In this document: piece by piece, positions 14,889 to 36,333 of the stretch | How positions within the stretch are numbered: the first letter of the stretch is position 1 | Layout of the letters: each line of letters opens with the position of its first letter | IMG/VR virus record: IMGVR_UViG_2876118799_000002 | Coordinates: 4,755-68,754 of that record | DNA length: 64,000 bases | Source of the DNA: a virus | Lineage: Duplodnaviria > Caudoviricetes | Direction: 5' to 3' (one strand) | The notes under the pieces: model-generated | The model's database searches: none | What the model was told of the DNA's origin: nothing | Seen by the model: the letters and a program-made list of their open reading frames with translations, nothing else | Made by a program: the position numbers and the translations under genes

Positions 14889-14949
14889 ATTACATAGACA
14901 GTCGATTTTATTACATGAATAAAATTTCAAGAAATAAAAGGTGTATTAT
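14889..14949 (+). promoter_or_regulatory. LytTR-type direct-repeat box and -10 element upstream of lanA
   Basis: TTACA at 14890 and 14911 (21-bp period), central TCG; TATTAT at 14944, 28 nt after the box. Confidence 0.75.
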
Positions 14950-15045
14950 CTAAAATGTAAGGAACAGAAGAAAATAATTCAACCATTTCAATTTAGAATT
15001 AGTATCTGTACTGTACAAAATTGATTTATGAAAGGAGAAATAATT

Positions 15046-15249
15046 ATGAGTGAAATGAGAAATCCTATTACAAGAGAAGAAAACTTTAGCAATCCAGCTG
15101 GTAACGTTATGATGGAGCTGCAGGAAGCAGATTTAAACAAATTTGTAGCAGGAGCTGGTGAAACCAGAAATTCCGGCGGAGTTTTATGTACAAGTACAGC
15201 AGAATGCTATTTTGGTACTTTGCTGAAACCTTGCTGCCCTAAGAAATAA
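15046..15249 (+). CDS. lanA: Class II lanthipeptide precursor, mersacidin/plantaricin C-like core
   Basis: Leader ELQEADL..VAGA (double-glycine type); core with CTSTAEC (CTxTxEC lipid II-binding motif) and terminal CC; aaaggag RBS before ATG 15046. Confidence 0.9.
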   Translation: MSEMRNPITREENFSNPAGNVMMELQEADLNKFVAGAGETRNSGGVLCTSTAECYFGTLLKPCCPKK

Positions 15250-15349
15250 ACACAGGTGTTGATAAAGAGGGTAAGCGTTAATTGAAGTTTGTGCAGTACA
15301 GATACGAATTGTGAGTTGAAATGGAAAGCAGAATGGGGTGTTTAAGAAC

Positions 15350-18300
15350 ATGAATACTGAGAGAGCATCATATTTTACAGAAAGAAGTTATACAACATCA
15401 GAAGCAGAAAATAAAAAAGATATATTTGAATATTGGAAAAAGATTTTAGGAGAAGATACATTAAGAGTTGCTGAGAAATGTTATGGTATTGATTTAGTAA
15501 AAGTTTTAAATTCTGAAAATTATGTATGTGAAAACAATCACGTGATGTCAGAAATGGAAAAGGTAAAAATAGAATTATTTGAAAAACCAATCAATTATAA
15601 CTATTCCGGATTCAAAGGAGAAAAATTGGCATTTGATAATTTTTTTATACCTTTAATCAATTACGGAATAGACATATTAAAAAATGGAACAAGTCTTTTT
15701 TTGACGGATTCTATTATAGATACATACGCAAATACCTTATTAGAGAGATTAGGGAAGATCAGTCTTGGAATATTAATGTTTGAAATGTATCTTTGTAAGA
15801 AGACGGGAAAACTGAATGGAAGAAATTCAGAGGAAGAATACGATTATTATAATAATAATTTTTTAAGTAAGAAATCGTATAAACAGGAGCTTTTCAATAT
15901 ATATCCATGTTTACTACGTTCAGTTACAGAAACCGTAGAAAACTTATCTTCTTATTATGTACTTTTATTAGAAAGACTTAATAAAGATAAAAATGAAATT
16001 GCGAATAAATTTTGTGGAGGTTTAGAATTTAAAAATGTAGTTGAAATAAGTTCTAATATCTCGGATTCTCATAAAAAAGGGAATGGGGTAAGTATTCTTA
16101 AGTTGGATAATGGCACTAAAATTGTGTATAAACCACGTTCATTAAAAATTGAAAAAGTGTATTTCGATTTTCTGGGAAAGATAAATGCTGGTTGTAAATA
16201 TGAGATGTATGAACCAAAAATATTAGATTGTCAGGAGTATGGTTGGGAGGAATTTGTATATTATAAAAGTTGTAAAACAGAGGATGAAATCAGACGGTAT
16301 TTTTATAGATTTGGAATATTGATTTTCGGTAGTTATATTCTTAATACAAATGATTTACATGAAGAAAATGTGATTGCCGCAGGAGAATATCCAATTATTA
16401 TAGATGCAGAAACTATACTAGATAACCGTAGAAGAGGGAGAACAAATTCTGCAAAGGAGGAAATAAATTATATCCTTCATGAGTCAGTATTATACTCAGG
16501 TTTATTGCCACACTATAGGTTTTCAAATTTGGGCCAAGGCGTAGATATGAGTGCAATTAAAGGTAGTGAGGGAAAGGAATATCCTATAGTTATTCCTAAA
16601 ATAGCGGATTTATGTACTTCAAATATGAGATTTGTATATGAACATCCTACAACTGGAGTAAATCAAAATCTTGTTAAATTAGATGGAGAAAATGTATCAG
16701 CATTTCATTATCTAAAAGAAATAAATGCAGGATTTGAAGATGCGTATAAATATGTTTTGGAGAACAAAGAAAAGTTTCTTGAATATGCCGATATGTTTGG
16801 TAATTTAAATATTCGCCATTTAGTTCAGGATACCCAAAGATATTCTATGTTATTACACACATCTTTTCATCCGGATTTTATGCAAGATGGAAGAGATAGA
16901 CAAATGTTTTTGTGTAGTTTATTTAAACAGTATGAAGCTACACAAGGAGATAAAGGTGTTGTGAAATGTGAGATAAAAGACATGTTAAACATGGACATTC
17001 CATATTTTTATCTCAATACATCAGGTAAATCTCTTTTCGGATCAGAAGGTGAGAAAATCGAAGACTATTTTGAATATACCAGTTTGGAACACTTAAAGAA
17101 AAAGATAGTATTGTTAGATGAAGATGATTTAAAAAGGCAATTAATGTTCATGAATATTATTCTGACAGAGATAAACGAATTTCAGGTTGAGGATAAAAAG
17201 ATAGAGCTTCAACAAATGAAAATGATTCCGCACAGAGAAAAAAATAAGGCTCATCTGTTAAAAGCTGTTCAGAAATTGGCTGATTCTCTTATAAAAACTG
17301 CTGTTTTTAATAAAGATAGAACAGAAGTTAATTGGATTGGTGTTACTCTAATAGGAAATGAAGATGACTGCTCATGGGATATAAGACCACTTGGTACCTA
17401 TTTATATGAAGGAATGTCTGGGCTAGCAATTTTCTTTAACGCATTGTATACTGTTGATCCCCAAAAGGAGTACCTTATTATATGCAATGCGATTGAAAAG
17501 GAATTATTTACATACACAGATGAGATGTGTGAACGAAATGAGGGAATAGAAAATGAAAGCAGTGGCGCCTTTGGTGGAGAAGCGTCTATAATGTACACTT
17601 ATGAGGTACTGTATAAAATTACAAATAAAGAAAAATATTTGGATTATGCAAAAAAGCACTATAAAATATTAAAGAAAGCGATTACCAGAGATAACAGTTT
17701 TGATCTTGTCTATGGTAATGCAGGCGCAGTTATTACATTGATCAATATGTATCAGCTAACCGGAAATAAAGAGTATATCGCTTCGGCAGAAATAGCAGGA
17801 GATATAATAGTAAATGCTCAGGAAAAGGAAGGCTCTATTAAAGGCGGATGGAATGGAGATGGAAGAACTTCGCCGTTAGCGGGATTTTCACATGGAGCAT
17901 CTGGAATAGTTTTAGCACTGGCAAAACTATGGCAGGTGACTCAGAAAGAGGAGTATTTATTATCACTGCTCGATGGCATTAAATTTGAAAATTCTTTATT
18001 TGTGAAAGAAAAAGGAAATTGGAAAGACGAAAGGGTATATGCAGGAGAAAAAGCATCTGATGGAGGAAGTTTTACCGTTGCTTGGTGTCATGGCGCTGCA
18101 GGCATATTGCTTAGCCGATCTAAAGTAAATGTCATATTGAATGGGCGGTATTCGGATTTGATAGAAAATGATATAAAAGTAGCAGTGAATACAATATTAA
18201 AAGAGGGAATTTTAGGAAACAATTGTCTATGTCATGGTAATTTAGGTAATACAGAAATTTTATTTGAATATTTAAAAGACCATTCAGATAAAAAGATAGA

Positions 18301-18487
18301 AAAATATTATGTAGATATTCGTGATATTATTGCTGAGAATGTATGTAATGGTGTATTTGATTGCGATAATGCGTATCTATATGGATATAAATTGCAAGGA
18401 TTTATGACAGGACTATGTGGCATGGGATATTCTTTGCTGCGAGATATAAAAAAAGATTTACCTTGTGTAATTGCTCTGGAAGTCTAA
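15350..18487 (+). CDS. lanM: Class II lanthipeptide synthetase
   Basis: Dehydratase motifs VYKPRS, DLHEEN, IDAET; LanC-like cyclase motifs GFSHG, WCHG, LCHG; GTG 15338 is an alternative start. Confidence 0.95.
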   Translation: MNTERASYFTERSYTTSEAENKKDIFEYWKKILGEDTLRVAEKCYGIDLVKVLNSENYVCENNHVMSEMEKVKIELFEKPINYNYSGFKGEKLAFDNFFIPLINYGIDILKNGTSLFLTDSIIDTYANTLLERLGKISLGILMFEMYLCKKTGKLNGRNSEEEYDYYNNNFLSKKSYKQELFNIYPCLLRSVTETVENLSSYYVLLLERLNKDKNEIANKFCGGLEFKNVVEISSNISDSHKKGNGVSILKLDNGTKIVYKPRSLKIEKVYFDFLGKINAGCKYEMYEPKILDCQEYGWEEFVYYKSCKTEDEIRRYFYRFGILIFGSYILNTNDLHEENVIAAGEYPIIIDAETILDNRRRGRTNSAKEEINYILHESVLYSGLLPHYRFSNLGQGVDMSAIKGSEGKEYPIVIPKIADLCTSNMRFVYEHPTTGVNQNLVKLDGENVSAFHYLKEINAGFEDAYKYVLENKEKFLEYADMFGNLNIRHLVQDTQRYSMLLHTSFHPDFMQDGRDRQMFLCSLFKQYEATQGDKGVVKCEIKDMLNMDIPYFYLNTSGKSLFGSEGEKIEDYFEYTSLEHLKKKIVLLDEDDLKRQLMFMNIILTEINEFQVEDKKIELQQMKMIPHREKNKAHLLKAVQKLADSLIKTAVFNKDRTEVNWIGVTLIGNEDDCSWDIRPLGTYLYEGMSGLAIFFNALYTVDPQKEYLIICNAIEKELFTYTDEMCERNEGIENESSGAFGGEASIMYTYEVLYKITNKEKYLDYAKKHYKILKKAITRDNSFDLVYGNAGAVITLINMYQLTGNKEYIASAEIAGDIIVNAQEKEGSIKGGWNGDGRTSPLAGFSHGASGIVLALAKLWQVTQKEEYLLSLLDGIKFENSLFVKEKGNWKDERVYAGEKASDGGSFTVAWCHGAAGILLSRSKVNVILNGRYSDLIENDIKVAVNTILKEGILGNNCLCHGNLGNTEILFEYLKDHSDKKIEKYYVDIRDIIAENVCNGVFDCDNAYLYGYKLQGFMTGLCGMGYSLLRDIKKDLPCVIALEV

Positions 18488-18557
18488 AATGATAGTATTG
18501 GAAATAATAGAATTTATTATTTCCAATACTAATTTATTATACTAGGGAGGTGTATTT

Positions 18558-20660
18558 ATGCACAAAAAAAGTGTGCCATTGATTCGCCAGATGGGGACAA
18601 CAGACTGTGGTATAGCAGCATTGACAATGATCTTCCAATATTATAAATATAAGATAGATATTAGTGAATTAAAAGCTACAACAAGTATTGGAAGAAATGG
18701 TATGTCTTTAGCAAAAATGAAAGAAATTACGGAAGAACATAATTTTTCATTCAAGGCGTATGGAAACTACGAAACCGAAGAAAATTTGATAAAATGTTTA
18801 CCGATTATCATGTGTTCAAAAGAAAATCATTATGTTGTAGTTGCGGAGAAAAAATATGGGAAATATATACTTTTAGATCCTTTAAAAGGAAAAGAAAAGG
18901 TTGATTATTCATCTATTAAAAAGAATTTTTTAGATGTACTTGTATGTGTTCGACCAACAGAAAAGAATTATAAACGTGAGAAACGTGAGTCTTTTCTTAT
19001 ACCTATAAATAAAAGCAAATTATTTCTGGCAAGTATTCTAACGTTGGTTACACAGGGAATTATATTGATTCCACCGCTCATTATAAAAAAAATAGTCAAT
19101 GAAATAACGTATGATACATTAGGCTTCAATTTTGTAAAATATGCGTTACTGATATTATCAGTGGCATTAAGTTATTTACTTGCAAATTTAGCTAAAAAAA
19201 GGGTAATACTTATTTTACAGAATAATATATACAAAGATACTATATTTTTAATGCTGAATAAAATATTTGATATTGATTTAAGTTATTTTGAAAGCCATTC
19301 ATCAGGAGATATTGAAAATCGCTTTAATAGTGTCAGTGATATATACGAATTTATATCAACAGCTCTAATTTCAACAGTGATAGATGTGGTTACTGCTGTT
19401 TTTTGCGGAATAATGATGATAACACAGTCAATACCATTGTTTGCAGTTATAATAGTAATGACTGTTATACAGATAACAATAGTAATGATTTTAAATCAAA
19501 AAGCTAGAATAAAGGTTAAAAATTATATTGCAGATCAGAGTGCATTACAGGCACGAATGGTAGAAACTTTGACTAATATCCAGCAAATAAGGTGCATGAG
19601 AATAGAGAATATGCTGAGTGATAGTCTGAAACAGGATTATAAGCATTTAATTAAGAGATTACGTGAGCGTGTACAAATAAGTGATATTATGGAGTCGGTG
19701 GTGGGGGCTTTTTCAATAGCTTCTTCATTGATACTTTACGTTATAGGAGGATACTTGGTTTGTGATAATAGGTTGGAATTAGGAACGTTAATAGCCTTTG
19801 TCACACTTGCCGGATATTTTACAGGTCCATTTCAAACTCTATCTTTGGTGGTACCTCAAATTAATGTTTTAAAGGAAACAATGATTCGTTTAAAAGAGTT
19901 AATGAATTATAAATCTAACCGTAAAAATGGTACTCAGCATATTAATTCATTTGAGTCTATGGAAATGCAGCAAGTAACATTTTCTTACTATGGAAGCACG
20001 AAGCCAGATGTAGAGAATGTTAGTATGATGCTAAAAAAGGGGGAGAAGATAGCATTTGTAGGAAGTTCAGGAAGTGGAAAGACTACAATTACAAAATTAT
20101 TATTGAACGTCTTTTCTCATTATCAAGGACAAATTTTAGTAAACGGGGAAGATATAAAACAAATATGCAAAGAGGATATAGATCGGATATTTGCCATAGT
20201 TACTCAGGTTCCAATGGCAATGAATGGAACAATTAGAGAAAACGTGGATATTACAAATACGTTGACAGATGAGGAAATATATCATTATTTAGATTTAGTA
20301 GAACTGAAAGATGATATAGAAAAATTCCCATTGGGACTTAATACATTTGTGGGAGAAAATGGACAGAACATTTCAGGAGGACAAAAACAGCGTATTGCTA
20401 TAGCAAGAGCATTGGCACTGAAACCGGAAGTTATTATTTTTGATGAAGCCACAAGCAACTTAGATCCTCTTACAGAACGAAGAATATGTAATAATTTGAA
20501 ACAACTACATATTACCCAGATTGTAGTTACACATAGACTGAATGCCATACAAGATGCTGATACAATATACGTAGTTGAAAAAGGAAAAATAATTGAATCC
20601 GGAACACATGTGGAACTACTTCAGTTAAAGGGCGCATATTATGATAGTGTAAATAATTAA
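18558..20660 (+). CDS. lanT: Peptidase-containing (C39) ABC exporter
   Basis: RQMGTTDCGIAAL C39 motif, HYVV, TMD, GSSGSGKT, SGGQKQR, FDEATS. Confidence 0.95.
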   Translation: MHKKSVPLIRQMGTTDCGIAALTMIFQYYKYKIDISELKATTSIGRNGMSLAKMKEITEEHNFSFKAYGNYETEENLIKCLPIIMCSKENHYVVVAEKKYGKYILLDPLKGKEKVDYSSIKKNFLDVLVCVRPTEKNYKREKRESFLIPINKSKLFLASILTLVTQGIILIPPLIIKKIVNEITYDTLGFNFVKYALLILSVALSYLLANLAKKRVILILQNNIYKDTIFLMLNKIFDIDLSYFESHSSGDIENRFNSVSDIYEFISTALISTVIDVVTAVFCGIMMITQSIPLFAVIIVMTVIQITIVMILNQKARIKVKNYIADQSALQARMVETLTNIQQIRCMRIENMLSDSLKQDYKHLIKRLRERVQISDIMESVVGAFSIASSLILYVIGGYLVCDNRLELGTLIAFVTLAGYFTGPFQTLSLVVPQINVLKETMIRLKELMNYKSNRKNGTQHINSFESMEMQQVTFSYYGSTKPDVENVSMMLKKGEKIAFVGSSGSGKTTITKLLLNVFSHYQGQILVNGEDIKQICKEDIDRIFAIVTQVPMAMNGTIRENVDITNTLTDEEIYHYLDLVELKDDIEKFPLGLNTFVGENGQNISGGQKQRIAIARALALKPEVIIFDEATSNLDPLTERRICNNLKQLHITQIVVTHRLNAIQDADTIYVVEKGKIIESGTHVELLQLKGAYYDSVNN

Positions 20661-20697
20661 GAACAGGTGAAAGTCAGATAATGGCTTTCACCTGTTC
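20661..20697. terminator. Bidirectional terminator between convergent lanT and kinase genes
   Basis: gaacaggtgaaag...ctttcacctgttc 13-bp stem. Confidence 0.8.
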
Positions 20698-20699
20698 TT

Positions 20700-22094
20700 T
20701 TAAGAGATCTTTTCTTCATACGGATCAATATGTTCAATAGGTATCTCTAATATGACCTTTAAGCCATGAGGAAGTATATTTTCATATTTGATATTTCCGT
20801 TATGGGCGGTTAATATTTGGTAAACCAATTTTAGACCAAATCCATGAACAGACTCCCCATTTGAATTGTACATATTATTAGGAAAAATACCACTATTCAT
20901 TTTTTCTATTTGTGTAGAAGTCATACCGCCACCATTATCAATGACGGAAATAATACAGGTATCATTTTCTTTTAAAATTTCAACTGTTATTTCACAACCA
21001 TGAGGATTATGATTAATACAATTTTGAATTAGATTGCTTAGCATTCTTGAAAAAAGTTCCGTATCTCCTTTGATCAATACTGGAATCGTATCAGATGATG
21101 AATGAAAGTCAAAAGAATATTTGTTGTCTATTGGTCCATTCATAAAGCCAATGATTACTTGGCGGGCAATTTCCACAGGAGAAAAACTGGTTTTTATTAA
21201 AGGCTGCATAGAGTATTCTAGTCTTGAAGTTAAATTTAAATCTGCGATTAGGCTACGGAGTTTTTCGCTTTGTTTACGAATTATACTTGCTTGTAGTTGT
21301 ACAGGTTGCGAAGCATCTTCATTTTTTTCGATTTCAGAAGCATATCCCAAAATAATAGAAAGAGGTGTCCGGACATCATGCGAAACACCATTAATCCATT
21401 CGGCACGCGCCTGTTCTTTTTGTAGAAGATGTTTTCCAGCCTTATTTAGTTCAGCATTTATACTTGAAAGTTCACCTGTTTCTGAAAGGGTAATGGGTTT
21501 TCCCTGAGCAATAGAGTCAATACCGTCAATGATTGGCACTATAGATTTTTCTATTTTATGTGTATTACGCCAGAATAATATAAATATCAGTAATATATTA
21601 AAACAAATCATTAAAAAGATACCGACTATTAGGCTGTGAATATAATTAATATCTATTGAAAAATTGTATTTTGTTATACTATTAGGTTCGCACCCGATAA
21701 CCAATAAGCCGGCAGAATGTTCTTGGATAAAAACAGGATATTCTTGTAAGTACCACCGACTAAACTTGGCTATTTGTAAATTTGAATAGGTTCTTGGCAA
21801 TTCTTCGGGTAAAAATTTTTCCCAAATGACATTTCCTTGTTCGTTTAAAATCATCGCCCAGGCACTTTTATTTTTTAGAATATTTTCTATATAATCAGTA
21901 GAAGAAATTGTTCCATCTACATTGAGCGTGATATTTTTGCTAATGGTTTGGACGGGTATATCTGGATCAGTAGAATTATTCCATGCCATGAGTAAAGTCC
22001 CACATATTAAAATAATATTTAGTACAAAAAATAAAATCAATATAATAAGGGTGGAAAGAAGATATTTTTTAAAAAAACGCTTGGCAAGCTTCAT
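20700..22094 (-). CDS. Sensor histidine kinase (SpaK/NisK-like position)
   Basis: Two TM segments, SHDVRTPL, NLIQN, DNGGG, GFGL. Confidence 0.9.
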   Translation of the reverse strand: MKLAKRFFKKYLLSTLIILILFFVLNIILICGTLLMAWNNSTDPDIPVQTISKNITLNVDGTISSTDYIENILKNKSAWAMILNEQGNVIWEKFLPEELPRTYSNLQIAKFSRWYLQEYPVFIQEHSAGLLVIGCEPNSITKYNFSIDINYIHSLIVGIFLMICFNILLIFILFWRNTHKIEKSIVPIIDGIDSIAQGKPITLSETGELSSINAELNKAGKHLLQKEQARAEWINGVSHDVRTPLSIILGYASEIEKNEDASQPVQLQASIIRKQSEKLRSLIADLNLTSRLEYSMQPLIKTSFSPVEIARQVIIGFMNGPIDNKYSFDFHSSSDTIPVLIKGDTELFSRMLSNLIQNCINHNPHGCEITVEILKENDTCIISVIDNGGGMTSTQIEKMNSGIFPNNMYNSNGESVHGFGLKLVYQILTAHNGNIKYENILPHGLKVILEIPIEHIDPYEEKIS

Positions 22095-22786
22095 TATTTT
22101 ACTCCTTTCACTAGCAATTTATATCCTAGCCCCTTAACTGTTAGCATTGAAACAGGAGAAGAAGGATTTTTTTCGATTTTTTCTCGAAGATGCCGAATGT
22201 GTGTCATGAGGGTAGTTTCATACCCTTGCCACATTTCACCACAAGCAGTTTGGCAAAGAGTTCCTATTGTTACAATGTGATTGGCATTATCTACAAGTTT
22301 TAATAATATATTGTATTCTTTAGCAGTCAAAGGAATAATTTTATTTTCACGATGTATTTCTGCCTTATCAATATCTATAAAAGAATTTTCTAATTCTATA
22401 ATTCGTTTCTCTGTAGGATAACTTCTTTTTAAAATAGCTTGAACACGTAACAATAGTTCTTTAGGCAAAAATGGTTTGATTAAATAATCATCTGCTCCCA
22501 ATTCAAAACCAGAAAAACGATCTTCGGCTGCATCTTTGGCGGTCAGCATAAGAACCGGAAGTTTACTGAGGGCTCTGATTTCTTGCAATACCTCAAATCC
22601 GTCCATACCAGGTAACATAACATCAAGAATAACCATGTCAGGTAGAGTTTCTCTTATTATTTGTAAAGCCATTTCTCCAGATGTTGCGGTCATTATTTTT
22701 GTATAGCCTGCTCTTTCAAATATTGTTTTAATAAGGGTGAGTAGTTCTTGTTCATCATCAACGATAAGTATAAATTTATCATACAT
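22094..22786 (-). CDS. OmpR-family response regulator
   Basis: ILIVDD, ILDVMLP, LTAK, GADDYLIKPF, wHTH C-terminus. Confidence 0.95.
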   Translation of the reverse strand: MYDKFILIVDDEQELLTLIKTIFERAGYTKIMTATSGEMALQIIRETLPDMVILDVMLPGMDGFEVLQEIRALSKLPVLMLTAKDAAEDRFSGFELGADDYLIKPFLPKELLLRVQAILKRSYPTEKRIIELENSFIDIDKAEIHRENKIIPLTAKEYNILLKLVDNANHIVTIGTLCQTACGEMWQGYETTLMTHIRHLREKIEKNPSSPVSMLTVKGLGYKLLVKGVK

Positions 22787-22865
22787 ATATTTTTATCTCC
22801 TAAAATTTTATAGTTTAAATTATTATACATCTTGTGGAAAAAGAAGTATAGAGAAAGAGGAAAAT

Positions 22866-22920
22866 CTCAAGGTTACCTCAAGGTTACTTCAAGGAAATCT
22901 CAATGTAGTTGGTATATAAT
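22866..22920 (+). promoter_or_regulatory. OmpR-type 11-bp-period direct repeats and -10 upstream of the immunity ABC operon
   Basis: ctcaaggttac, ctcaaggttac, ttcaaggaaat, ctcaatg at 22866/22877/22888/22899; TATAAT at 22915. Confidence 0.7.
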
Positions 22921-22949
22921 TACAGTATAAAAAAAGGAGGTATAAAAAA

Positions 22950-23873
22950 ATGAGTGAATATATTATTCAAACCAATAATTTAACAAAACAGTATGGAGAG
23001 CAAAAGAGTGTTTCTGCAATGAACTTGCATGTGAAAAAAGGAAGAATTTATGGACTGTTGGGACGTAATGGAGCAGGAAAAACGACTACAATGAAAATGC
23101 TGTTAGGATTAACAAAACCGACATCGGGAAACATAAAAATATTTGGGAAAAGTATGGAAACCAATAGTAAAGATATTTTACCGCATATAGGTAGTTTAAT
23201 AGAATCACCAGGATTTTATCCTAATTTGACTGGGACTGAAAATCTTCGTATTTTTGCGGAGCTTAGAGGATTAAATAAAAGTAAGTGTGTAAGAGATGCT
23301 TTGGAAGTTGTCGGTTTGCCCTATCGTGATAAAAAGTTATTTGCGGAATATTCACTTGGGATGAAACAACGACTGGCCATTGCATTGGCAGTTATGCACA
23401 ATCCCAATTTGCTGATATTAGATGAGCCTATTAATGGTTTGGATCCTATAGGTATTGCAGAGGTACGTTCGTTTATTAGAGAGTTATGTGATGTTCAGGG
23501 AAAAACTATTTTGATTTCTAGTCACATATTATCAGAGATAGAATTACTGGCAGATGATATAGGGATTATTGATAAGGGAATTTTACTTGAAGAAGAAAGT
23601 ATGAAAGAATTGGCGAAAAAAAATAGTCGCTATGTCAATTTTATGGTATCGGATAGCCAGCGCGCAGCGGAAATTTTAAGAAAAGAATTTGAATGTGATG
23701 ATTTTCAAATATGTGATAAAAATAGACTTCAATTATATAATACAACAATCCCTAGATCAGAAATTACTTATGTTTTTGTAAAGCAAGGATTGGAAATTAC
23801 AGAAGTTCATTTATGCGAAGAAACATTGGAAGATTATTTTAAAAGGGTGACCGGAGGTGAAGGAATTGCTTAA
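22950..23873 (+). CDS. Lantibiotic-protection type ABC ATP-binding subunit (LanF/BcrA-like)
   Basis: GRNGAGKTT, YSLGMKQRL, LDEPINGLDP, SSHILSE. Confidence 0.9.
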   Translation: MSEYIIQTNNLTKQYGEQKSVSAMNLHVKKGRIYGLLGRNGAGKTTTMKMLLGLTKPTSGNIKIFGKSMETNSKDILPHIGSLIESPGFYPNLTGTENLRIFAELRGLNKSKCVRDALEVVGLPYRDKKLFAEYSLGMKQRLAIALAVMHNPNLLILDEPINGLDPIGIAEVRSFIRELCDVQGKTILISSHILSEIELLADDIGIIDKGILLEEESMKELAKKNSRYVNFMVSDSQRAAEILRKEFECDDFQICDKNRLQLYNTTIPRSEITYVFVKQGLEITEVHLCEETLEDYFKRVTGGEGIA

Positions 23874-24651
23874 ATTAGTTAAGGTTGAATTTCAAAAACT
23901 GAAAAGAAAAAAGTTTATTCTTTTAGTAACTTTAGCTGCATTTATGTTTCCGCTTCCATTGGCTTATTTAATGACAACACCAGCTATGATGGAGCAATAT
24001 ATTGATAAAGCGGACGCATTTGACGGACTATTTAATATGGTATTGGGGTATGGAATCCAATTTTTATTACCCTGTATTATCGGAGTAGTAGCTGCTATGT
24101 TGTTTTTTATTGAACGTGATAATGATACATTTAAAAATATTAAAACAATCCCACTATCCAGTACGCAAGTAGTTACAGCAAAAATTATAGTGCTATTTAT
24201 TATAGGCGTTGTATTTTGCATAGCATCAACGGTAGCAACAGTTCTGGTTGGTATGTTTACGTTAGATGTATACGGTTTAGGATACAAAATATTTCTGGCG
24301 GTTGAAACAGGAATATTTATTACCGCAGGAACATTACCATTGATTGTTATAGTGGTATTTTTTAGTCGTACTTATGTTTTCTCTGTTTTATTATGTATTT
24401 TTTATAGCGTTTTAAATATGAGTGCAACAGCACTTTTCGATGCATTACCAAAGACAATATTATGGTTACTTCCTACGCCGCTTACAACATTTTGGAGTGC
24501 TGGAGATATGAAAAGACATGGAATTAATATGAACCTTGTACAAATGAATGGATTAATTCCTTCAACTTTTCAAGTAATATTAATTCTTGGGATTATGGCA
24601 GGAATTTCAATACTATTAATTGACTGTTTGTACAAGAAAAGGGGGGAATAA
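23857..24651 (+). CDS. ABC-2 permease (LanE/G-like)
   Basis: EFQKLKR N-terminus, ERDNDTFKNIKTIP motif, about 6 TM. Confidence 0.8.
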   Translation: MKELLKLVKVEFQKLKRKKFILLVTLAAFMFPLPLAYLMTTPAMMEQYIDKADAFDGLFNMVLGYGIQFLLPCIIGVVAAMLFFIERDNDTFKNIKTIPLSSTQVVTAKIIVLFIIGVVFCIASTVATVLVGMFTLDVYGLGYKIFLAVETGIFITAGTLPLIVIVVFFSRTYVFSVLLCIFYSVLNMSATALFDALPKTILWLLPTPLTTFWSAGDMKRHGINMNLVQMNGLIPSTFQVILILGIMAGISILLIDCLYKKRGE

Positions 24652-24653
24652 AA

Positions 24654-25889: not shown

Positions 25890-26029
25890 AGATAGAAAAT
25901 GCTAAAAATGGGTAAATTTGGAAGATACAGGTTTGGTTGCATTTTACTGTGGTAAAAAGTATATGAAGAGTGGAATGGCGGTTGTTTAATACTGCCATTC
26001 TTTTTTTTGAAAATGCCTCTATGGGAATT

Positions 26030-26090
26030 ATTACACAGGGAATCGAAAAAATTACATGTAGATGGGATAGTACATTAAATATGGTAAAAT
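26030..26090 (+). promoter_or_regulatory. LytTR-type box and extended -10 upstream of the secreted protein gene
   Basis: TTACA at 26031 and 26052, central TCG; TGgTAAAAT with hexamer at 26085 (28 nt after the box). Confidence 0.75.
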
Positions 26091-26122
26091 ATAATCATAA
26101 TATGAGATCGGAGGTATATTCT

Positions 26123-26785
26123 ATGAAGAAACTATTTAAAGTATTCAGCCTAATGCTGGTGGTGATAATGGCTTTTCCATTCTCTGTTATGGCAAGCGAA
26201 AATGACCAGCAAAGAAGTGATTTGATTGGTGCAGAAGAAAGGGATTTTGAAAAATTGATTGCAGAAATCCAGAACATTAAGGCTACTCACCCAGATTATT
26301 CAGAAGAAATGCTCATGTCTTTTTTGGAAGCCAATCATCAAGATGTGGAAAGGGGGATTATAGATATTTGGAATGCGCTTACAGATTCAGAAAAGAAACT
26401 ATGTATTCGTTATCCTTTTGATGCCCTAAAGGTAAATAAAGCAAAAAATATTGCTACTTCGCAGACAGAGGCAAAATTTGGGACAAATGGTTTAGGAAAT
26501 AGAAGTGATGCTTTTCGTCATGGAATTTGGAATGCTGAAATGACTGTTTTAATAGGAAAAGAAAGAGCAGAGTTATTTGCAACTGCTCATGAAGACAAAG
26601 ATGTTACAGGAACAGAATCAGACGGATATCCAAAAACAGCACATAGAGATATGGACTTACATAACAATGAAGTGGGAAGAGAAATAGGAGAAAAAAATAA
26701 AGAAGCTTCTGAAAGTGAAATGGCGGATATTATTTATCAGGAAATATATTCCGCAACAACATCATTTATATGGCTACATGAATAA
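26123..26785 (+). CDS. Secreted protein with DUF6973-like domain
   Basis: Signal peptide MKKLFK...VMA; DAFRHGIWNA...HE...MDLHNNEVGR motif recalled as DUF6973; ggaggt RBS. Confidence 0.7.
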   Translation: MKKLFKVFSLMLVVIMAFPFSVMASENDQQRSDLIGAEERDFEKLIAEIQNIKATHPDYSEEMLMSFLEANHQDVERGIIDIWNALTDSEKKLCIRYPFDALKVNKAKNIATSQTEAKFGTNGLGNRSDAFRHGIWNAEMTVLIGKERAELFATAHEDKDVTGTESDGYPKTAHRDMDLHNNEVGREIGEKNKEASESEMADIIYQEIYSATTSFIWLHE

Positions 26786-26790
26786 GATTT

Positions 26791-26812
26791 GAGCAGTGCG
26801 ATTGCACTGCTC
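26791..26812 (+). terminator. Hairpin / probable terminator
   Basis: gagcagtgc...gcactgctc stem. Confidence 0.55.
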
Positions 26813-26920
26813 GTCTTCGTATTTTGCATATTTTGCGTAATTGATTACTTCTATTATTTGTATCGCTATGAATGAAATAGGGTAGCATGATAGTACAACA
26901 TGATTAAGAGGTAGGCAATT

Positions 26921-27295
26921 ATGGAAAGTCGTATTAAACAATTACGTGAGAAAAGAGGGTTAATACAGGAAATCCTTGCAGTAGAATTAGGGATAACACA
27001 GCAAATGTTGAGTAAGTACGAAAGAGATGTTACGTTAATAAAAGTAGATATTCTGAAAAAGATTGCTGCTTACTTCAATGTAACAACAGATTATTTGCTG
27101 GGAGTTTCAGATGTAAAAAGAGATTTGAATGGGCAGATGAAAATGAACGAAGTACTAGACGAATATTACGATTTAGTGGAAGTGTATAAAGAGTTAGATC
27201 CATGTGATCAGGAGATGATTTGGTCAATTATACAAATAGTAAAAAAAACGAGTGAGAAGAAAAAATCAGCAAACATGCAGAAGAGAGTGGAGTGA
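26921..27295 (+). CDS. XRE-family HTH regulator
   Basis: RIKQLREKRGLIQ...LGITQQMLSKYER...FNVTTDYLLG. Confidence 0.9.
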   Translation: MESRIKQLREKRGLIQEILAVELGITQQMLSKYERDVTLIKVDILKKIAAYFNVTTDYLLGVSDVKRDLNGQMKMNEVLDEYYDLVEVYKELDPCDQEMIWSIIQIVKKTSEKKKSANMQKRVE

Positions 27296-28024
27296 ATGTT
27301 AAATATAGCAATTTGTGATGATGATATTCAAATAACTGGAAAAATCGAAAGACTTCTCCAGGATATAGCTAAAAGAAATTTTGTTGATACTGAAATAGAA
27401 GTATTCTGGAATGGAAAGAGTTTAGCAGATGCTATCGCAGCAGGTGAGAGGTATGATGTTATTTATCTGGATATAGAAATGGATAAAGAAGATGGTATTT
27501 CGGCAGCTAGAAGAATTAGAACATACGATAAAAATGTGCGAATTATTTATGTTACGAGCCATGAAAGTTATATGAGGGAATCCTTTGAGGTAAGACCGTT
27601 TCAGTTTCTTGTAAAACCTGTAACAGATAAAATAATGGAAAAGTGCTTTAAGTCGGTATATGAAGACATTAATAGTGAAGATTTTTATTTTCGCTATAGT
27701 TATCAACGTATGAATCATAAAGTACCAATCAAGGATATTTTATATTTTGAAAGCAACAAACGAAAAATATTTATTGTAACGGAACAAGAAATCCTTGAAC
27801 TGTACGGAAAACTTAATGAGATTGAAGAAACCCTTAAAACATGTAAAATTTCTTTTTTGCGAGTTCATCAGTCTTTTCTGGTGAATTATAAACATATATC
27901 CGGACAATCTTATGATTCTGTAGTAATGGATAATGGACAAAAAATTTCAATCAGTGAAGACCGGAGAAAGATAATTAGTGAACAATATTGTTCTATGGAG
28001 GATACGTTTTATGTGGACGAATAG
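27296..28024 (+). CDS. LytTR-family response regulator (AgrA-like)
   Basis: IAICDDD, IYLDIEM, FLVKP; LytTR FLRVHQSFLVN. Confidence 0.95.
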   Translation: MLNIAICDDDIQITGKIERLLQDIAKRNFVDTEIEVFWNGKSLADAIAAGERYDVIYLDIEMDKEDGISAARRIRTYDKNVRIIYVTSHESYMRESFEVRPFQFLVKPVTDKIMEKCFKSVYEDINSEDFYFRYSYQRMNHKVPIKDILYFESNKRKIFIVTEQEILELYGKLNEIEETLKTCKISFLRVHQSFLVNYKHISGQSYDSVVMDNGQKISISEDRRKIISEQYCSMEDTFYVDE

Positions 28025-29321
28025 GGTATTAATGTGTGGGATAGATATATTGCTTTGCCTTTGGGCAGTATATTTATTCTTTTTTTATTTCGATATATTT
28101 TTTGCTCGTAAGAGAAAAAGGTATTTGTCGGTGATCGGTATAACGCTGTTCGTGATTTGGCAATTTGGAATAACAACGATTATTAGTTTTCCTGCCTACA
28201 TCAATATTGCTGTGACGATTATGTTTACGTTTTTGGCAGTTATGATGACTTATGAAGGTAGATGGTGGAACAAAGGTGTATTTGTAATTACCTTTAATGC
28301 GATTTGGATGTTGATGGAAACCCTGTGCAACTATATTTTGCTAACATACTGCCCTCAATATGCTGCAGTTCGCCAAGTAGGCTCTTTCGTTTCAAAAATA
28401 TTTTTTAATGCAGTAATTCTTGCATTAAAGAAAGTGTTCACAGATGATGATATTAAGGAATTGCCGGTCAGATACAGTATTTTACTTGTGTTGATCCCAA
28501 CAGGAAGCATTTATATCATGAACAATATATTTATGCTTGGATTTGCAAATAATAATGGACGTACTCGTATAAACTCTACATTTACTGTACTTATTTTACT
28601 TGGTATGAACATATTGATATTTTATGTCTATATGAAGTTGGCTGATGATTTGCGGTTAAGGAGAATGGCAGCAGTATATGAACAGCAACTGGAATTATGC
28701 GAACGTCATCAGCAAGAAAGAGAACTTTCAATGTTGCAGTTGCGGGATATAAAACACAATATGAAGAATAATCTTATTTCCATTCTTGCTTATGCAGAAA
28801 ATAAAGAATATGAAAAAATGACAGGTTTTATTGAAGAAATTATGGGAGAGGGCGGTATGGTGATTGCCTCAATATCGAATAGTGGGAATATTGTGATTGA
28901 TTCACTTATTGGATATTGGTATGTAACTGCCCAAAACAAAAGAATAATTTTTAAAACGGATATTTGTATTCCGATGATAATGCCTTTTAAAGGAGCTGAT
29001 CTGAGTCTGATATTGGGAAATTTACTGGAAAATGCAGTGGAAGCAGCAGAGAAGGTTGAAGAAAATAGATATATAAATGTCAAAATGAAATTTGATAAAA
29101 ATAATCTATTATTGTTCGTAGACAATAGTTATAAAGGGAAGCTGTTAAAAACAAGAGATAACCGCTTGAAATCTACAAAGTCAGATGCAGAAAATCATGG
29201 AGTAGGTTTAGCCTCTGTGTATCGGGCAGTAGCAAAATATCATGGATCAGTGGTAATAGAGGATTCAGAACCAGGAAAATTTAAAATTCGGATAGTCTTA
29301 TATAGTAATGTGCAGGAATAA
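28011..29321 (+). CDS. GHKL sensor kinase (AgrC-like)
   Basis: Multi-TM N-terminus, RDIKHNMKN, GNLLENAVEA, HGVGL; ggagg RBS before ATG 28011. Confidence 0.9.
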   Translation: MWTNRVLMCGIDILLCLWAVYLFFFYFDIFFARKRKRYLSVIGITLFVIWQFGITTIISFPAYINIAVTIMFTFLAVMMTYEGRWWNKGVFVITFNAIWMLMETLCNYILLTYCPQYAAVRQVGSFVSKIFFNAVILALKKVFTDDDIKELPVRYSILLVLIPTGSIYIMNNIFMLGFANNNGRTRINSTFTVLILLGMNILIFYVYMKLADDLRLRRMAAVYEQQLELCERHQQERELSMLQLRDIKHNMKNNLISILAYAENKEYEKMTGFIEEIMGEGGMVIASISNSGNIVIDSLIGYWYVTAQNKRIIFKTDICIPMIMPFKGADLSLILGNLLENAVEAAEKVEENRYINVKMKFDKNNLLLFVDNSYKGKLLKTRDNRLKSTKSDAENHGVGLASVYRAVAKYHGSVVIEDSEPGKFKIRIVLYSNVQE

Positions 29322-29381
29322 TTACATGAACACTCGAAATAATTACATAAAAAATAATGAGAAAGGAAAGAATGGTAAAAT
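29321..29381 (+). promoter_or_regulatory. LytTR-type box and extended -10 upstream of the pseudo-receiver gene
   Basis: TTACA at 29322 and 29343, central TCG; TGgTAAAAT with hexamer at 29376 (28 nt after the box). Confidence 0.75.
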
Positions 29382-29419
29382 GGAAAGATAAATTTGGTAT
29401 GCGGTATGGGGACTGATAT

Positions 29420-29833
29420 ATGGATAGCGTGAAAATATTGCTGTTTAGTGATGATGAGAAACTGTATAACAGTACTGAAAGGATTATTGGGAAAAAACAC
29501 CAATTAAAATGGTGTACTTATCAACAGTTGGAAAACAATAGATATCCAACGGCAGATGTTGTGATTTTCCATTTTACTAAAGAGATAATAGAGAGGGAAA
29601 GGGCATTTGCGGCTATTATAAAAATAAAAGGGAGTTTGGGGCATTTAACGCCTATTCTTGCTATTAGCGAAGGGGGATCAATACAGGATATTTTTTCTAT
29701 ACTGAAAGCAGGAGCTTACGATTATATAGAAACAATAGATAACACACGAAAATATAAGAAAAAGATAGAGAACCTGATTTTATGGAATTGGTATATAAAA
29801 AAACATACATCAGCAAAAAAGAGGCAATGTTGA
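29420..29833 (+). CDS. Stand-alone atypical receiver-domain protein
   Basis: KILLFSDDE, DVVIFH (His where the phospho-Asp is expected), TPILAIS, KAGAYDYI; no output domain. Confidence 0.65.
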   Translation: MDSVKILLFSDDEKLYNSTERIIGKKHQLKWCTYQQLENNRYPTADVVIFHFTKEIIERERAFAAIIKIKGSLGHLTPILAISEGGSIQDIFSILKAGAYDYIETIDNTRKYKKKIENLILWNWYIKKHTSAKKRQC

Positions 29834-29882
29834 GAAAGAACCGGAGAAACATTGCTTCTTTTTTGCTGCCTTTTTGGGAAAA

Positions 29883-29943
29883 ATTACATCAATACTCGGT
29901 TTTTTTACAAGAGAACCGAATGGGAGATTTTTTGTAGTAATGT
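29883..29943 (+). promoter_or_regulatory. LytTR-type box upstream of agrD-agrB
   Basis: TTACA at 29884 and 29905, central TCG; weak TAnnnT hexamer at 29938. Confidence 0.7.
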
Positions 29944-29974
29944 ATTGGTAAACAAATGAAAGGAGATTTTAATT

Positions 29975-30124
29975 ATGAAATCTAAAAATTTAAAAAATCA
30001 GCCAGCAAAAGTATTAGCAAATTTATCTCTGAAACTTGGTAAAATGTCAGCGGACAGTGCTTGCTGTTATATTTATCATCAGCCAAAGATGCCAGAAGCA
30101 TTGAAAAAAATGAAGAAACTTTAA
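29975..30124 (+). CDS. agrD: Cyclic (thio)lactone autoinducer precursor, 49 aa: MKSKNLKNQPAKVLANLSLKLGKMSADSACCYIYHQPKMPEALKKMKKL
   Basis: Translated by hand; aaaggag RBS; clostridial AgrD pattern SAC-x4-HQP-x-xP; directly upstream of agrB; not in the ORF track. Confidence 0.9.
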   Translation: MKSKNLKNQPAKVLANLSLKLGKMSADSACCYIYHQPKMPEALKKMKKL

Positions 30125-30128
30125 TTTC

Positions 30129-30710
30129 ATGGGAAGATTATCGGAAAAAATAACAAGATACGTTATTGATGCCGGTGCAGTTTCAGAGGAATTGTATGCA
30201 GTATATCAATATGGATTTCAGATTGGATTAGAGATGTTAATTTGCCTATTCGTCTGTATGAGTATAGCGATATACTTGCATACAATCCCAGAATTCCTTG
30301 TGTCTACAGGTGTTTTTATGTTTTTAAGAACCTATGCTGGTGGTGTACATCTGAATAGCTTTAAGGCTTGTTTTATATGCTCTGTTACTGTTCAAGTTAT
30401 GATTTTGCAAATTAATAACAAATATCCATTAGAGCTGTTTGTGGCTTGGGGGATTATTTTGGTCAGTTCCATTTGTATATGGAAACTTTCTCCTGTAGAA
30501 AACATTAACCATGAGTTGAAAAAAGAAGAAAAGGAACATTGCCGAAAAGTAACAGGTAAAATACTAGGAGCTATTTTCATTGCTGCTGGCTGTTGTACAG
30601 CTTTAGGTATGAAAAAATATTTATCCTTGATTGCGTTGACAGCGTTGACCGTTTTTATATCACAATGTATCGGCATCATAAAGTATAAAGTTGAAAAAGA
30701 GAAAAATTAG
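30129..30710 (+). CDS. agrB: Accessory gene regulator B peptidase
   Basis: YQYG, LRTYAGGVH (catalytic His), C-x-x-x-S, SPVE motif. Confidence 0.9.
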   Translation: MGRLSEKITRYVIDAGAVSEELYAVYQYGFQIGLEMLICLFVCMSIAIYLHTIPEFLVSTGVFMFLRTYAGGVHLNSFKACFICSVTVQVMILQINNKYPLELFVAWGIILVSSICIWKLSPVENINHELKKEEKEHCRKVTGKILGAIFIAAGCCTALGMKKYLSLIALTALTVFISQCIGIIKYKVEKEKN

Positions 30711-30933
30711 CGGGAATGATAAAATATTATTGTTTCCGCGTTTTTTATTTAAAATGGTAAAACTGTACAGAAATATAGAAAAGACTGTTGTGGGAGGAAA
30801 AGATGCAGAATATTTTTTCGGAATACAAAGATACCATAATTGTTGTTGACCTCATGAATCATCAAACAACTGATTTACTTGCCTGTCTCTGAATTAACCT
30901 GTATACTGCCATCAGCATACAAAAGGAAAGCGT

Positions 30934-32374: not shown

Positions 32375-32385
32375 AAGGAGAACCC

Positions 32386-32892: not shown

Positions 32893-32906
32893 TTGGAGGC
32901 GTGCTT

Positions 32907-33971: not shown

Positions 33972-33987
33972 GCATTTAGAAGTAAAA

Positions 33988-34005
33988 TCTTAGGAATTTC
34001 TTAGG
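33988..34005 (+). promoter_or_regulatory. OmpR-type direct repeat upstream of the ABC-2 operon
   Basis: tcttagg-N4-tcttagg. Confidence 0.6.
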
Positions 34006-34102
34006 AGATTTTGTTCCATATCTTTGAGATTAAACTGTTTTTGTTCGGTACAATAGTTACTGAACAAGGACAGTTTTTTGTTTAAGAGAAAGGAGTACAC
34101 CT

Positions 34103-34990: not shown

Positions 34991-34991
34991 T

Positions 34992-36230
34992 ATGCGTTTA
35001 TTTTGTTTAGAAGTAAAGCGTGTCCTGAAATCACGACGCACACTTATCTTAATTGCTGTGGCTCTGGTTATGTCTGTTGTTATGGCATATCTGCCGATTG
35101 CTTTTGAGTCCATAAATCGTCCAAACCCAGATGGAACAAAAACAGAACTTGATGGTATGGAGGCAATCGAATTTAAGCGTGATTTATATTCTGCTATAAA
35201 TGGCGAAGTTACTCCAGAAAAAGTGAGTGAGGCTTTGAGAATTTATCAAAGTTTGATAAACGAATATGGTCCTATGGAAAGTGACACATTTCCGCTTTCT
35301 GTCAGTATTAAACAGATTGTACCTATTCGTCCATTGCTTAAAGCGTTGCCAGAACTATATGCTGATCCGTTAACTGGAATAGGACCTGATCTTATGGATA
35401 TTGATCCAGAAGATGTTGCACAAAATTATTATCAGAAATGTGAAACTCATCTGGCAGATGTTATGAGGAATGAGCAACGCAATCATCCGGCCGCACAACA
35501 ACAAGCCTTAGAACAATATAAAAAAGTCGATATGCCATTTCAACTTTATGCAGGATATTCCAAAGACGCGTTTGACTATGTTGAGCTTTATATTATGATT
35601 TTGGCAATTTTATGTGTTTCCATTATCACGCCTATTTTTTCTGGTGAATATCAATCAGGCGCGGATAGTATTTTGCGTTGTGCAAAGCATGGTCGTACCA
35701 GATTAGCTATTACAAAGATATTGGCTTCCAGTATGATTGTGATGGTTGTGTATACTATGTGTATTACACTGCACTTAGCAATTTCAGATATCACATTTGG
35801 AACAAATTGTTTACAATCTTCTGTTCAAATGTTGTTTTCTATTATTAACTTGCCAAACTGGGACTTAGCACAGATGCAGATTGTTATTTCGTTAGTAGGG
35901 TTGATATCTGTTTTAGCTTGTGTTTACTGTACTTTTTTTTTATCAGCAAAATGCAAAGATACATTGACGGTATTGTTGATTGCTATTGGCATAGTCCTTA
36001 TTCCGACTTTTGCTTACACAGCATTAGGGGTAAATTGGATTTCAGCTATTTTTCCATCTGCGGGACTTGGTATGCAAAATAATTTTCTGTATCAACTTAT
36101 CAATTTTAATTACCTACATATTGGGGGAATGAGTTTTTGGACACCGTATACTATATTAATTTCCGCATTGATTGAGATTCCTGTTTTCTTATTTCTTACA
36201 GTTCGAACTTATTGTAGGCACCAGATGTAA
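34992..36230 (+). CDS. ABC-2 type permease
   Basis: EVKRVLK N-terminus, FSGEYQSG..ILRC.KHGR motif, multi-TM; ggagga RBS before ATG 34992. Confidence 0.8.
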   Translation: MRLFCLEVKRVLKSRRTLILIAVALVMSVVMAYLPIAFESINRPNPDGTKTELDGMEAIEFKRDLYSAINGEVTPEKVSEALRIYQSLINEYGPMESDTFPLSVSIKQIVPIRPLLKALPELYADPLTGIGPDLMDIDPEDVAQNYYQKCETHLADVMRNEQRNHPAAQQQALEQYKKVDMPFQLYAGYSKDAFDYVELYIMILAILCVSIITPIFSGEYQSGADSILRCAKHGRTRLAITKILASSMIVMVVYTMCITLHLAISDITFGTNCLQSSVQMLFSIINLPNWDLAQMQIVISLVGLISVLACVYCTFFLSAKCKDTLTVLLIAIGIVLIPTFAYTALGVNWISAIFPSAGLGMQNNFLYQLINFNYLHIGGMSFWTPYTILISALIEIPVFLFLTVRTYCRHQM

Positions 36231-36272
36231 ATATAAGGAAAAAGGGCTATATTCATAAAGTATAGAGGATTT

Positions 36273-36333
36273 ATTACATCAAGTATCGAAATTGTTACAT
36301 CAAAATATATTTTGGGGGATTTATTGATATAAT
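36273..36333 (+). promoter_or_regulatory. LytTR-type box and extended -10 upstream of the third rSAM gene
   Basis: TTACA at 36274 and 36295, central TCG; TGaTATAAT with hexamer at 36328 (28 nt after the box). Confidence 0.8.

Follow-up and report, generated by a model that had tools for sequence, protein, structure and literature searches.

A five-copy direct-repeat box as the probable operator of an AgrA/ComE-like regulator connecting two RiPP operons to an agr-type signal in a gut Lachnospiraceae island

How could a lanthipeptide operon, a radical S-adenosylmethionine (SAM) peptide operon, a gene for a secreted protein, and a set of agr-type signaling genes, all scattered along one stretch of DNA, respond to the same cue? 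This question is raised by IMG/VR record IMGVR_UViG_2876118799_000002, a 68.7-kb contig of which positions 4,755 to 68,754 were analyzed here (64,000 nucleotides; hereafter the window, to which all coordinates refer). An earlier note on this DNA had claimed that a box of the form ATTACA-N7-TCG-N6-TTACA occurs 5 times in the window and defines a quorum-sensing regulon spanning 2 classes of ribosomally synthesized and posttranslationally modified peptides (RiPPs). Based on the sites, their geometry, and their conservation, we consider it very likely that the 5 boxes serve as operator sites for an AgrA/ComE-like response regulator that the island itself encodes (27296–28024).

The bare pair TTACA-N16-TTACA was found 7 times in the window, where 0.24 matches were expected, and none of 100 shuffled sequences reached this number. 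Five of the pairs, at 14890, 26031, 29322, 29884, and 36274 of the plus strand, all carry TCG at the identical offset, and the strict pattern TTACA-N7-TCG-N6-TTACA is matched without mismatches by these 5 sites alone in the entire contig. The copy number, the 21-bp period, and the TCG reported in the earlier note were therefore reproduced exactly; among relatives, the position of the leading A of its box is either A or G. All 5 boxes are intergenic, lie on the plus strand, and are oriented toward the downstream gene: box 1 (14889–14915, 40.2 bits) lies upstream of lanA, box 2 (26030–26056, 34.8 bits) upstream of the DUF6973 gene, box 3 (29321–29347, 39.1 bits), which starts at the stop codon of the kinase gene, upstream of the gene for a stand-alone pseudo-receiver, box 4 (29883–29909, 34.8 bits) upstream of agrD-agrB, and box 5 (36273–36299, 37.5 bits) upstream of the radical-SAM operon. 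These scores were obtained with a weight matrix built from the 5 window boxes themselves; against their 35 to 40 bits, the runner-up position on either strand of the whole contig scores 11 bits. The half-site consensus of the boxes found here matches AAAAGTTACA. Conservation extends about 7 nt 5′ of the box as GGAA-w-A, at positions outside the site-finding matrix, with G at −6 in 48 of 59 sites, A at −4 in 57 of 59, and A at −3 also in 57 of 59. The other 2 TTACA-N16-TTACA matches (21–46; 3083–3108, minus strand) have no TCG, score at most 7 bits, and lack a −10 partner, and were set aside as chance matches.

Each box stands at a constant distance from a putative promoter element. A TAnnnT hexamer starts exactly 28 nt past the second TTACA in all 5 cases, which bears out what had been noticed before, including the weaker hexamer at agrD. 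The predicted −10 elements, all on the plus strand, are TATTAT for lanA (14944–14949), TAAAAT for the DUF6973 gene (26085–26090), TAAAAT for the pseudo-receiver gene (29376–29381), TAATGT for agrD (29938–29943), in which the first T, the A, and the last T do not vary among 16 loci, and TATAAT for the radical-SAM operon (36328–36333). Among the 59 distinct sites of relatives, the distance from box to −10 is 28 nt in 30 sites, which is the mode, and 27 to 29 nt in 40. No conserved −35 hexamer was found at the 5 window promoters or across the 59 sites. A fixed spacing of 28 nt to a TAnnnT hexamer without a −35 is a hallmark of activator-dependent promoters. The 5 box promoters were not flagged by a generic two-hexamer sigma-70 scan; because they lack a −35, such a scan misses them, and its result is evidence neither way. 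Six public runs labeled as RNA contain this DNA as assembled contigs; in the 4 that were compared with the window, these were 18 to 48 kb long and spanned many genes, and they are therefore uninformative about starts, strands, and expression.

Which protein would read these boxes? The gene calls made earlier for this region all held up, by Pfam and NCBIfam matches and, for the pseudo-receiver, by a profile and a predicted structure. The plus-strand gene at 27296–28024 encodes a response regulator with a REC domain (PF00072, 56 bits against a cut-off of 30.2) and a LytTR domain (PF04397, 65.4 bits against a cut-off of 22.6; 68.3 bits in a six-frame search), and it is the sole LytTR gene found by the six-frame search of the contig. 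Its acidic pocket (D8-D10) and its phosphoacceptor Asp59 are invariant in 11 orthologs, and its closest solved structure is ComE (4cbv, E-value 3e-12). The NCBIfam equivalog for AgrA proper, NF046049, gave 37.9 bits, below its cut-off of 400, and the regulator is thus AgrA-like by context, not an AgrA ortholog. It is followed by a gene for an AgrC-like membrane histidine kinase (28011–29321, plus strand; PF14501 HATPase_c_5, 84.8 bits against a cut-off of 22, E-value 4e-24), whose likely start, placed by comparison with orthologs at 28011, overlaps the stop codon of the regulator gene. The N-terminus of the kinase is of the multi-pass AgrC/ComD (HPK10) type, with several hydrophobic segments in residues 15–224.

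The signal genes, agrD (29975–30124) and agrB (30129–30710), lie further downstream on the plus strand. AgrB matched PF04647 with 121.5 bits (cut-off 23, E-value 3.5e-35) and AgrD matched TIGR04223 with 54.6 bits (cut-off 19). AgrD carries a Cys 5 residues ahead of the cleavage site and a conserved carboxyl-terminal tail, and this Cys and the HQPK-x-P that follows are invariant in 16 orthologs; the predicted ring would be C-(C/A)-(Y/F)-I-(Y/F). A weak AgrB-like six-frame match at 9057–9245 is interrupted by stop codons and was set aside. We propose the LytTR regulator as the binder of the boxes because it is the only one on the contig, has an intact acidic pocket, adjoins an HPK10-type kinase and AgrBD, and is structurally closest to ComE.

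If this is so, the box should travel with the regulator, and loci for comparison were collected by similarity of the regulator protein (individual loci are given below by their L number). Orthologs with 64% to 99% identity were found in about 30 Lachnospiraceae records, including Faecalimonas umbilicata DSM 103426, Sporofaciens musculi, Blautia ammoniilytica, and Coprococcus catus, as well as metagenome-assembled genomes (MAGs) labeled Eubacterium, Roseburia, Mediterraneibacter, and Eisenbergiella; a second tier has at most 45% identity. The conserved gene order is DUF6973, helix-turn-helix (HTH) gene, regulator, kinase, pseudo-receiver, agrD, and agrB. Matrix matches of at least 16 bits number 70 in 490 kb near LytTR orthologs of at least 64% identity, against a single match in 470 kb near homologs of at most 45% identity, which lies beside the closest of this distant set. 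Counting a box as upstream when it lies within 260 nt of the gene start, it precedes the pseudo-receiver gene in 20 of 20 orthologous loci, agrD in 20 of 21, lanA in both of 2, and the DUF6973 gene in 8 of 13, and it was never found directly before the HTH, regulator, or kinase genes of the loci compared. When 16 agrD upstream regions were anchored on the start codon, TTAC, TCG, the second repeat, T-A-N3-T, and the ribosome-binding site stood out as invariant islands, while the rest of the DNA barely aligns. Overall, the box is kept at orthologous promoters through 50% to 80% protein divergence.

A scan of the 3.1-Mb genome of F. umbilicata gave 4 strict boxes: 3 in the cassette and a fourth on another contig, where a box identical to box 1 precedes an identical lanA-lanM. 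The reversed pattern, used as a control on this genome, gave 1 match. Relaxing the T of TCG added no sites in F. umbilicata, and in 4 other genomes the added sites lay mainly before RiPP operons, along with a few GC-rich, chance-like intragenic ones. Frequent occurrence of the motif in non-promoter DNA, which the earlier note had named as grounds for abandoning its proposal, was therefore not seen, as the strict boxes of F. umbilicata all lie at predicted targets. Its inference of a LytTR regulon is supported by these comparisons: the box co-occurs with close LytTR orthologs only, is kept at orthologous promoters, and is nearly confined to the predicted targets. As a separate observation, TTACA-N16-TTACA pairs without TCG (L045:9903, L046:9910, L051:9910, minus strand) were found near distant LytTR genes (28% to 31% identity) of Enterococcus and of a Lachnospiraceae MAG. 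They lie about 90 nt from the starts of these genes and face a divergent small gene, and they may point to a broader subfamily of regulators with a related half-site.

The regulator and kinase genes, which carry no box, are preceded by a gene for an XRE-type HTH_3 regulator (26921–27295, plus strand; PF01381, E-value 1e-15). In the promoter region of this HTH-regulator-kinase unit lies the palindrome GTAAT-N2-ATTAC (26837–26848, plus strand), a candidate operator for the XRE-type HTH protein and not a LytTR box. The window has no second exact match, and the LytTR gene starts about 460 nt further downstream. The promoter region (26814–26920) is strongly conserved, many loci have a second palindrome over the ribosome-binding site, and the palindrome is present only in loci carrying the HTH gene. 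Thus, the palindrome is associated with the HTH protein and the direct repeat with the LytTR regulator. Given its restriction to these loci, the palindrome is likely an autorepressor operator that gates expression of the receptor genes. As these genes lie behind the HTH promoter, feedback would act on the signal and the pseudo-receiver, and on the receptor genes by read-through at most. The autoactivation anticipated earlier for this system would consequently apply to the signal genes, where a box precedes agrD in the window and in the loci counted above, and not directly to the regulator and kinase genes.

What we observe directly is where the boxes lie, how they are spaced, how well they are conserved, and that they occur together with the regulator. 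We infer that the regulator binds them and that it activates instead of represses, as well as where transcription starts and what the signal is. In the mechanism we propose, AgrB would process AgrD into a cyclic peptide, which would be sensed by the AgrC-like kinase, leading to phosphorylation of the regulator. A dimer of the regulator would then bind the 2 TTACAT units, which are 21 bp, or 2 helical turns, apart, with the intervening TCG as part of the recognized surface. Centered at about −43 and −64 of the predicted start, the regulator would replace the absent −35 and recruit RNA polymerase to 5 otherwise weak promoters. At high cell density, this would result in positive feedback on agrD-agrB and in co-induction of the lanthipeptide operon, the sactipeptide-like radical-SAM operon, the DUF6973 gene, and the pseudo-receiver gene.

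Several points weigh against this proposal. To our knowledge, the half-site TTACAT is unlike the published LytTR consensus sequences. The 2 units of the box are unequal, with TCG after the first only, and a simple symmetric tandem-dimer model is therefore incomplete. Unlike in the P2 operon of Staphylococcus aureus, the regulator and kinase genes lack a box. Box 5 is without independent phylogenetic support, as only near-identical copies carry it: it is present in metagenome copies of 94% to 100% identity and absent before homologs of 47% to 49% identity. Finally, the promoter-proximal repeat lies nearer to the −10 than the position of about −60 reported for AgrA (PMC4227749).

Among other possible binders, the adjacent XRE-type HTH protein (26921–27295) is the nearest at hand. 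Its gene is cotranscribed with the regulator gene and kept in most cassettes, and the palindrome at its own promoter has 5 bases in common with the box half-site (ATTAC/ATTACA). This palindrome, however, is confined to loci having the HTH gene, and loci L007, L008, L009, and L026, which lack an adjacent HTH gene, nevertheless have strong boxes before the pseudo-receiver gene and, as far as their contigs extend, also in front of agrD and RiPP operons. The 21-bp period of the direct repeat also suits LytTR dimers better than an XRE dimer, and we consider it very unlikely that the XRE-type protein binds the boxes in place of the LytTR regulator. Somewhat less improbable, but still unlikely, is that a factor encoded elsewhere in the host binds the boxes, or that the LytTR regulator, once bound there, represses or blocks transcription instead of activating it. 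Only 68.7 kb of the genome is in view, and the sign of regulation cannot be read from sequence; yet the box moves with the cassette on mobile DNA across genera and vanishes with regulator orthology, which argues against a host factor, and a site upstream of a −10 without a −35 favors activation; overlap with the core promoter would be expected of a site for a repressor.

An entirely different origin of the sites, as duplicated or recombined copies of one promoter module or as products of chance, with no shared regulon behind them, would fit the frequent duplication of promoter segments in mobile islands and the finding of box 5 in near-identical copies only. The 5 window sites nevertheless have unrelated flanks and unrelated sequence from box to −10, so that they are not copies of one duplicated promoter; about 0.2 sites are expected by chance, and the box outlasts 50% to 80% protein divergence at orthologous promoters. 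We give this explanation hardly any weight. The same holds for binding by the OmpR-type regulator of the lanthipeptide cluster (22094–22786, minus strand), which would bind direct repeats in the manner of LanR. Members of its family do bind direct repeats, and the LanRK-like pair adjoins lanFEG-like genes, but the half-sites of OmpR-family proteins repeat at about one helical turn instead of 2, the boxes persist in many loci without the lanthipeptide cluster or the LanRK pair, and this regulator-kinase pair lies outside the conserved cassette. It is thus extremely improbable that it reads the boxes, and operation by the LytTR regulator remains the reading that we prefer.

Turning to the predicted targets, box 1 heads a class II lanthipeptide operon (15028–20660, plus strand) consisting of lanA (15028/15046–15249), lanM (15338–18487), and lanT (18558–20660). 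LanM contains DUF4135 and LANC_like domains, LanT combines a Peptidase_C39 domain with an ATP-binding cassette (ABC) domain (Pfam), and LanA belongs to the plantaricin C family of lantibiotics (NCBIfam NF000539, 50.3 bits against a cut-off of 29); with LanM, LanA, and a C39-containing LanT, all parts of a class II lanthipeptide cluster are present. The adjoining part of the cluster (20700–25889) contains its own pair of genes for the OmpR-type regulator (22094–22786) and a kinase, both on the minus strand. Next on the plus strand are an ABC ATPase gene (22950–23873), 2 open reading frames (ORFs) resembling membrane proteins, and a lipoprotein-like ORF, all read from sequence only. No LytTR box precedes the likely lanthipeptide immunity genes in 20700–25889, and production of the lanthipeptide and immunity to it seem to be under different regulators.

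A terminator-like hairpin (25972–26001, plus strand) separates these immunity genes from box 2 and the gene for the secreted DUF6973 protein (26120–26785, plus strand; PF22322, E-value 1e-28), which has an N-terminal hydrophobic leader. The view of this protein as a co-activated secreted product fits the box that precedes its gene, but the gene proved to be a conserved member of the signaling cassette and not an independent cargo. Eight orthologs share 88 invariant columns. The predicted model is all-helical (predicted local distance difference test [pLDDT] 83) and resembles the carboxyl-terminal part of BteO, a type VI secretion system effector of Bacteroides fragilis (9uu0_B; Z 12.3, root-mean-square deviation [rmsd] 3.8, 130 aligned residues, 24% identity), and the N-terminal domain of Wnt (7kc4_D: Z 10.8, rmsd 2.8, 120 aligned, 26% identity; 4krr: Z 8.3, rmsd 3.3, 109 aligned). 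The next unrelated row of this search has a Z of 6.2, and for helical models a Z below about 13 can reflect a common arrangement, so that these matches serve only as a lead. As BteO is an antibacterial effector without enzymatic activity (PMC12541434), the DUF6973 protein, going by the model, may be a quorum-controlled secreted antibacterial or envelope-binding protein.

The radical-SAM operon behind box 5 (36356–40031, plus strand) comprises a maturase (36356/36374–37927), a six-Cys precursor (37991–38191), and an ABC exporter (38256–40031). The maturase matched the Pfam family Radical_SAM, with no SPASM match reported by Pfam, and its best NCBIfam matches are below cut-off (RumMC, 475 bits against 720; CcpM, 317 bits against 500). 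The precursor matched TIGR04067 with 105 bits against a cut-off of 45, and the operon is predicted to be sactipeptide-like. No relatives of the radical-SAM enzyme were found in viral contigs. In one metagenome contig, L087 (1233 versus 3001), about 1.7 kb instead of about 100 nt separates the box from the radical-SAM match downstream, which suggests an insertion between promoter and gene.

The target of box 3, a protein of 137 residues (29420–29833, plus strand), had no family match in Pfam or NCBIfam. A profile of 11 orthologs, however, matched REC domains end to end (E-value 1.8e-4), and an AlphaFold2 model (pLDDT 88) gave Foldseek matches to REC/CheY chains with template modeling scores of 0.6 to 0.8, consistent with a (beta-alpha)5 fold. 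When aligned to 1nxo, it has His, Ile, and Thr in place of the phosphoacceptor Asp, the Thr/Ser, and the Lys, respectively. With these residues at the 3 positions, the protein is a pseudo-receiver: a CheY fold without the phosphoacceptor Asp. It probably modulates the circuit. Its promoter frequently shows a third, weaker repeat unit 21 bp further upstream (L005:12003, L006:12012, L007:12003, L015:12000, L020:12012; about 29299 in the window), which overlaps the 3′ end of the kinase gene, so that its conservation may partly reflect coding. The gene is followed by a terminator-like hairpin and T-run (29820–29865, plus strand; 12-bp stem, −16 kcal/mol, with a z of only −1.45), and an equivalent stem and T-run follow the pseudo-receiver gene in orthologs.

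Further terminator-like hairpins lie after the DUF6973 gene and before the HTH promoter (26790–26813, plus strand), where orthologous loci have an identical hairpin sequence, and after agrB at the right-hand end of the cassette (30710–30739, plus strand). Together with those before box 2 and after the pseudo-receiver gene, they split the cassette into separate units. Contigs from 3 studies track the window over 14700–30721 and then diverge at 30721, just past the agrB terminator, and in one of them the part from 26357 on is preceded by unrelated DNA. The cassette thus behaves like a modular unit whose right-hand boundary is constant.

The DUF6973 gene lacks its own box in 5 of 13 loci, each time lying behind another operon, which in L005, L006, and L013 is a box-driven RiPP operon. 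There, a complete RiPP operon separates the box promoter from the DUF6973 gene (L005:3026–9488; L006:3184–9488; L013:3169–9492), and the interval from box to DUF6973 therefore behaves as a cargo slot of the cassette, into which RiPP operons appear to be inserted. Several kinds of box-headed operons were found in the relatives: an ABC exporter with 2 to 3 small Cys-containing peptides and a radical-SAM enzyme (L006, L013, and L026), 3 Cys-rich peptides with a radical-SAM enzyme (L009), an Ala/Pro-rich precursor set (L003 and a Blautia genome), a secreted protein with a lipoprotein (L022 and L023), and a box-headed lanA (L005 and L059).

The AgrD core is near-invariant across loci labeled as several Lachnospiraceae genera (L003–L029), with a mean identity of 0.70 and an invariant ring and HQPK, whereas AgrB shows 51% to 63% and the kinase 47% to 74% identity, and AgrB, kinase, and pseudo-receiver together diverge to 42% to 74%. 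Although we consider it less likely than not, the cassette might be a portable platform common to many Lachnospiraceae genera, in which a public, cross-genus cyclic-peptide signal co-induces different RiPP cargo held in the same promoter slot, so that different gut commensals would turn on their antibiotics jointly, with the quorum-induced pseudo-receiver as a brake and the XRE-type HTH protein gating the receptor.

The record is classified as a provirus, with a CheckV completeness of 62%, but no phage structural genes were found among the larger ORFs scanned in the window. Instead, there are 3 tandem large serine recombinases (45607–50540) and a fourth at 59285–60982, an IS66 transposase (9713–11389, minus strand), a RES-domain protein, a MazF-like protein, and a PBECR4 nuclease. 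The window thus looks like an integrative island of a gut Lachnospiraceae bacterium and not like a phage.

The coordination of several bacteriocin operons by LytTR boxes, as in com, blp, and pln, is textbook knowledge, and the basic wiring described here is classical LytTR bacteriocin control. As in the ComE/BlpR systems of streptococci and PlnC/PlnD of Lactiplantibacillus plantarum, a pheromone, a kinase, and a LytTR regulator would reach several bacteriocin operons via one repeated box. Those systems use linear double-glycine pheromones exported by C39 ABC transporters and control mostly unmodified class II bacteriocins, whereas the signal here is of the AgrD/AgrB type and the cargo consists of a lanthipeptide and radical-SAM RiPPs. 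In S. aureus, AgrA binds paired direct repeats upstream of P2 and P3, where core promoter elements are suboptimal (PMC4227749). The AgrB/AgrD signal, the HPK10-type kinase, the REC-LytTR regulator, the paired repeats 2 helical turns apart, the weak core promoters, and the proposed positive feedback on the signal genes are shared with that system (PMC4227749). In contrast to S. aureus agr, the half-site sequence is another one, the repeats lie nearer to the −10, and there is no −35. Four transcription units are involved, with the receptor genes boxless behind an XRE-HTH gene that has its own palindrome, and a conserved pseudo-receiver and DUF6973 protein are added. The signal peptide is near-invariant across genera, the opposite of the hypervariable staphylococcal pherotypes.

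Association of agr-like genes with lanthipeptide clusters has been described before. The paenibacillin cluster of Paenibacillus polymyxa OSY-DF contains an embedded agrABCD set, and both rise together in expression; the regulatory link was stated as not validated, and no operator was defined (PMC13700820). Here, a specific predicted operator spans several unlinked operons and many genomes. In Clostridium acetobutylicum, a link between Agr and a LanM-like protein has been reported (PMC10301443). We found no description of the box operator or of the Lachnospiraceae cassette in the literature, with subscription journals mostly beyond the reach of our search. Four features go beyond the LytTR paradigm: an AgrD core that hardly varies between genera, the cargo slot, the pseudo-receiver, and receptor genes that appear to be controlled separately.

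If our reading is correct, a high cell density would jointly activate 2 peptide-antibiotic clusters, the gene for a secreted protein, and the signal genes. Silent clusters of this type in gut Lachnospiraceae could then be woken by way of a defined operator and regulator and a signal peptide that can be predicted. The culturable strain F. umbilicata DSM 103426 carries 4 of the 5 targets. The operator would also serve as a genome-mining flag for RiPP operons, and it already points to unclassified families of Cys-rich and Ala/Pro-rich precursors. Finally, with a signal that hardly varies across genera, quorum sensing between species of gut commensals could be tested directly.

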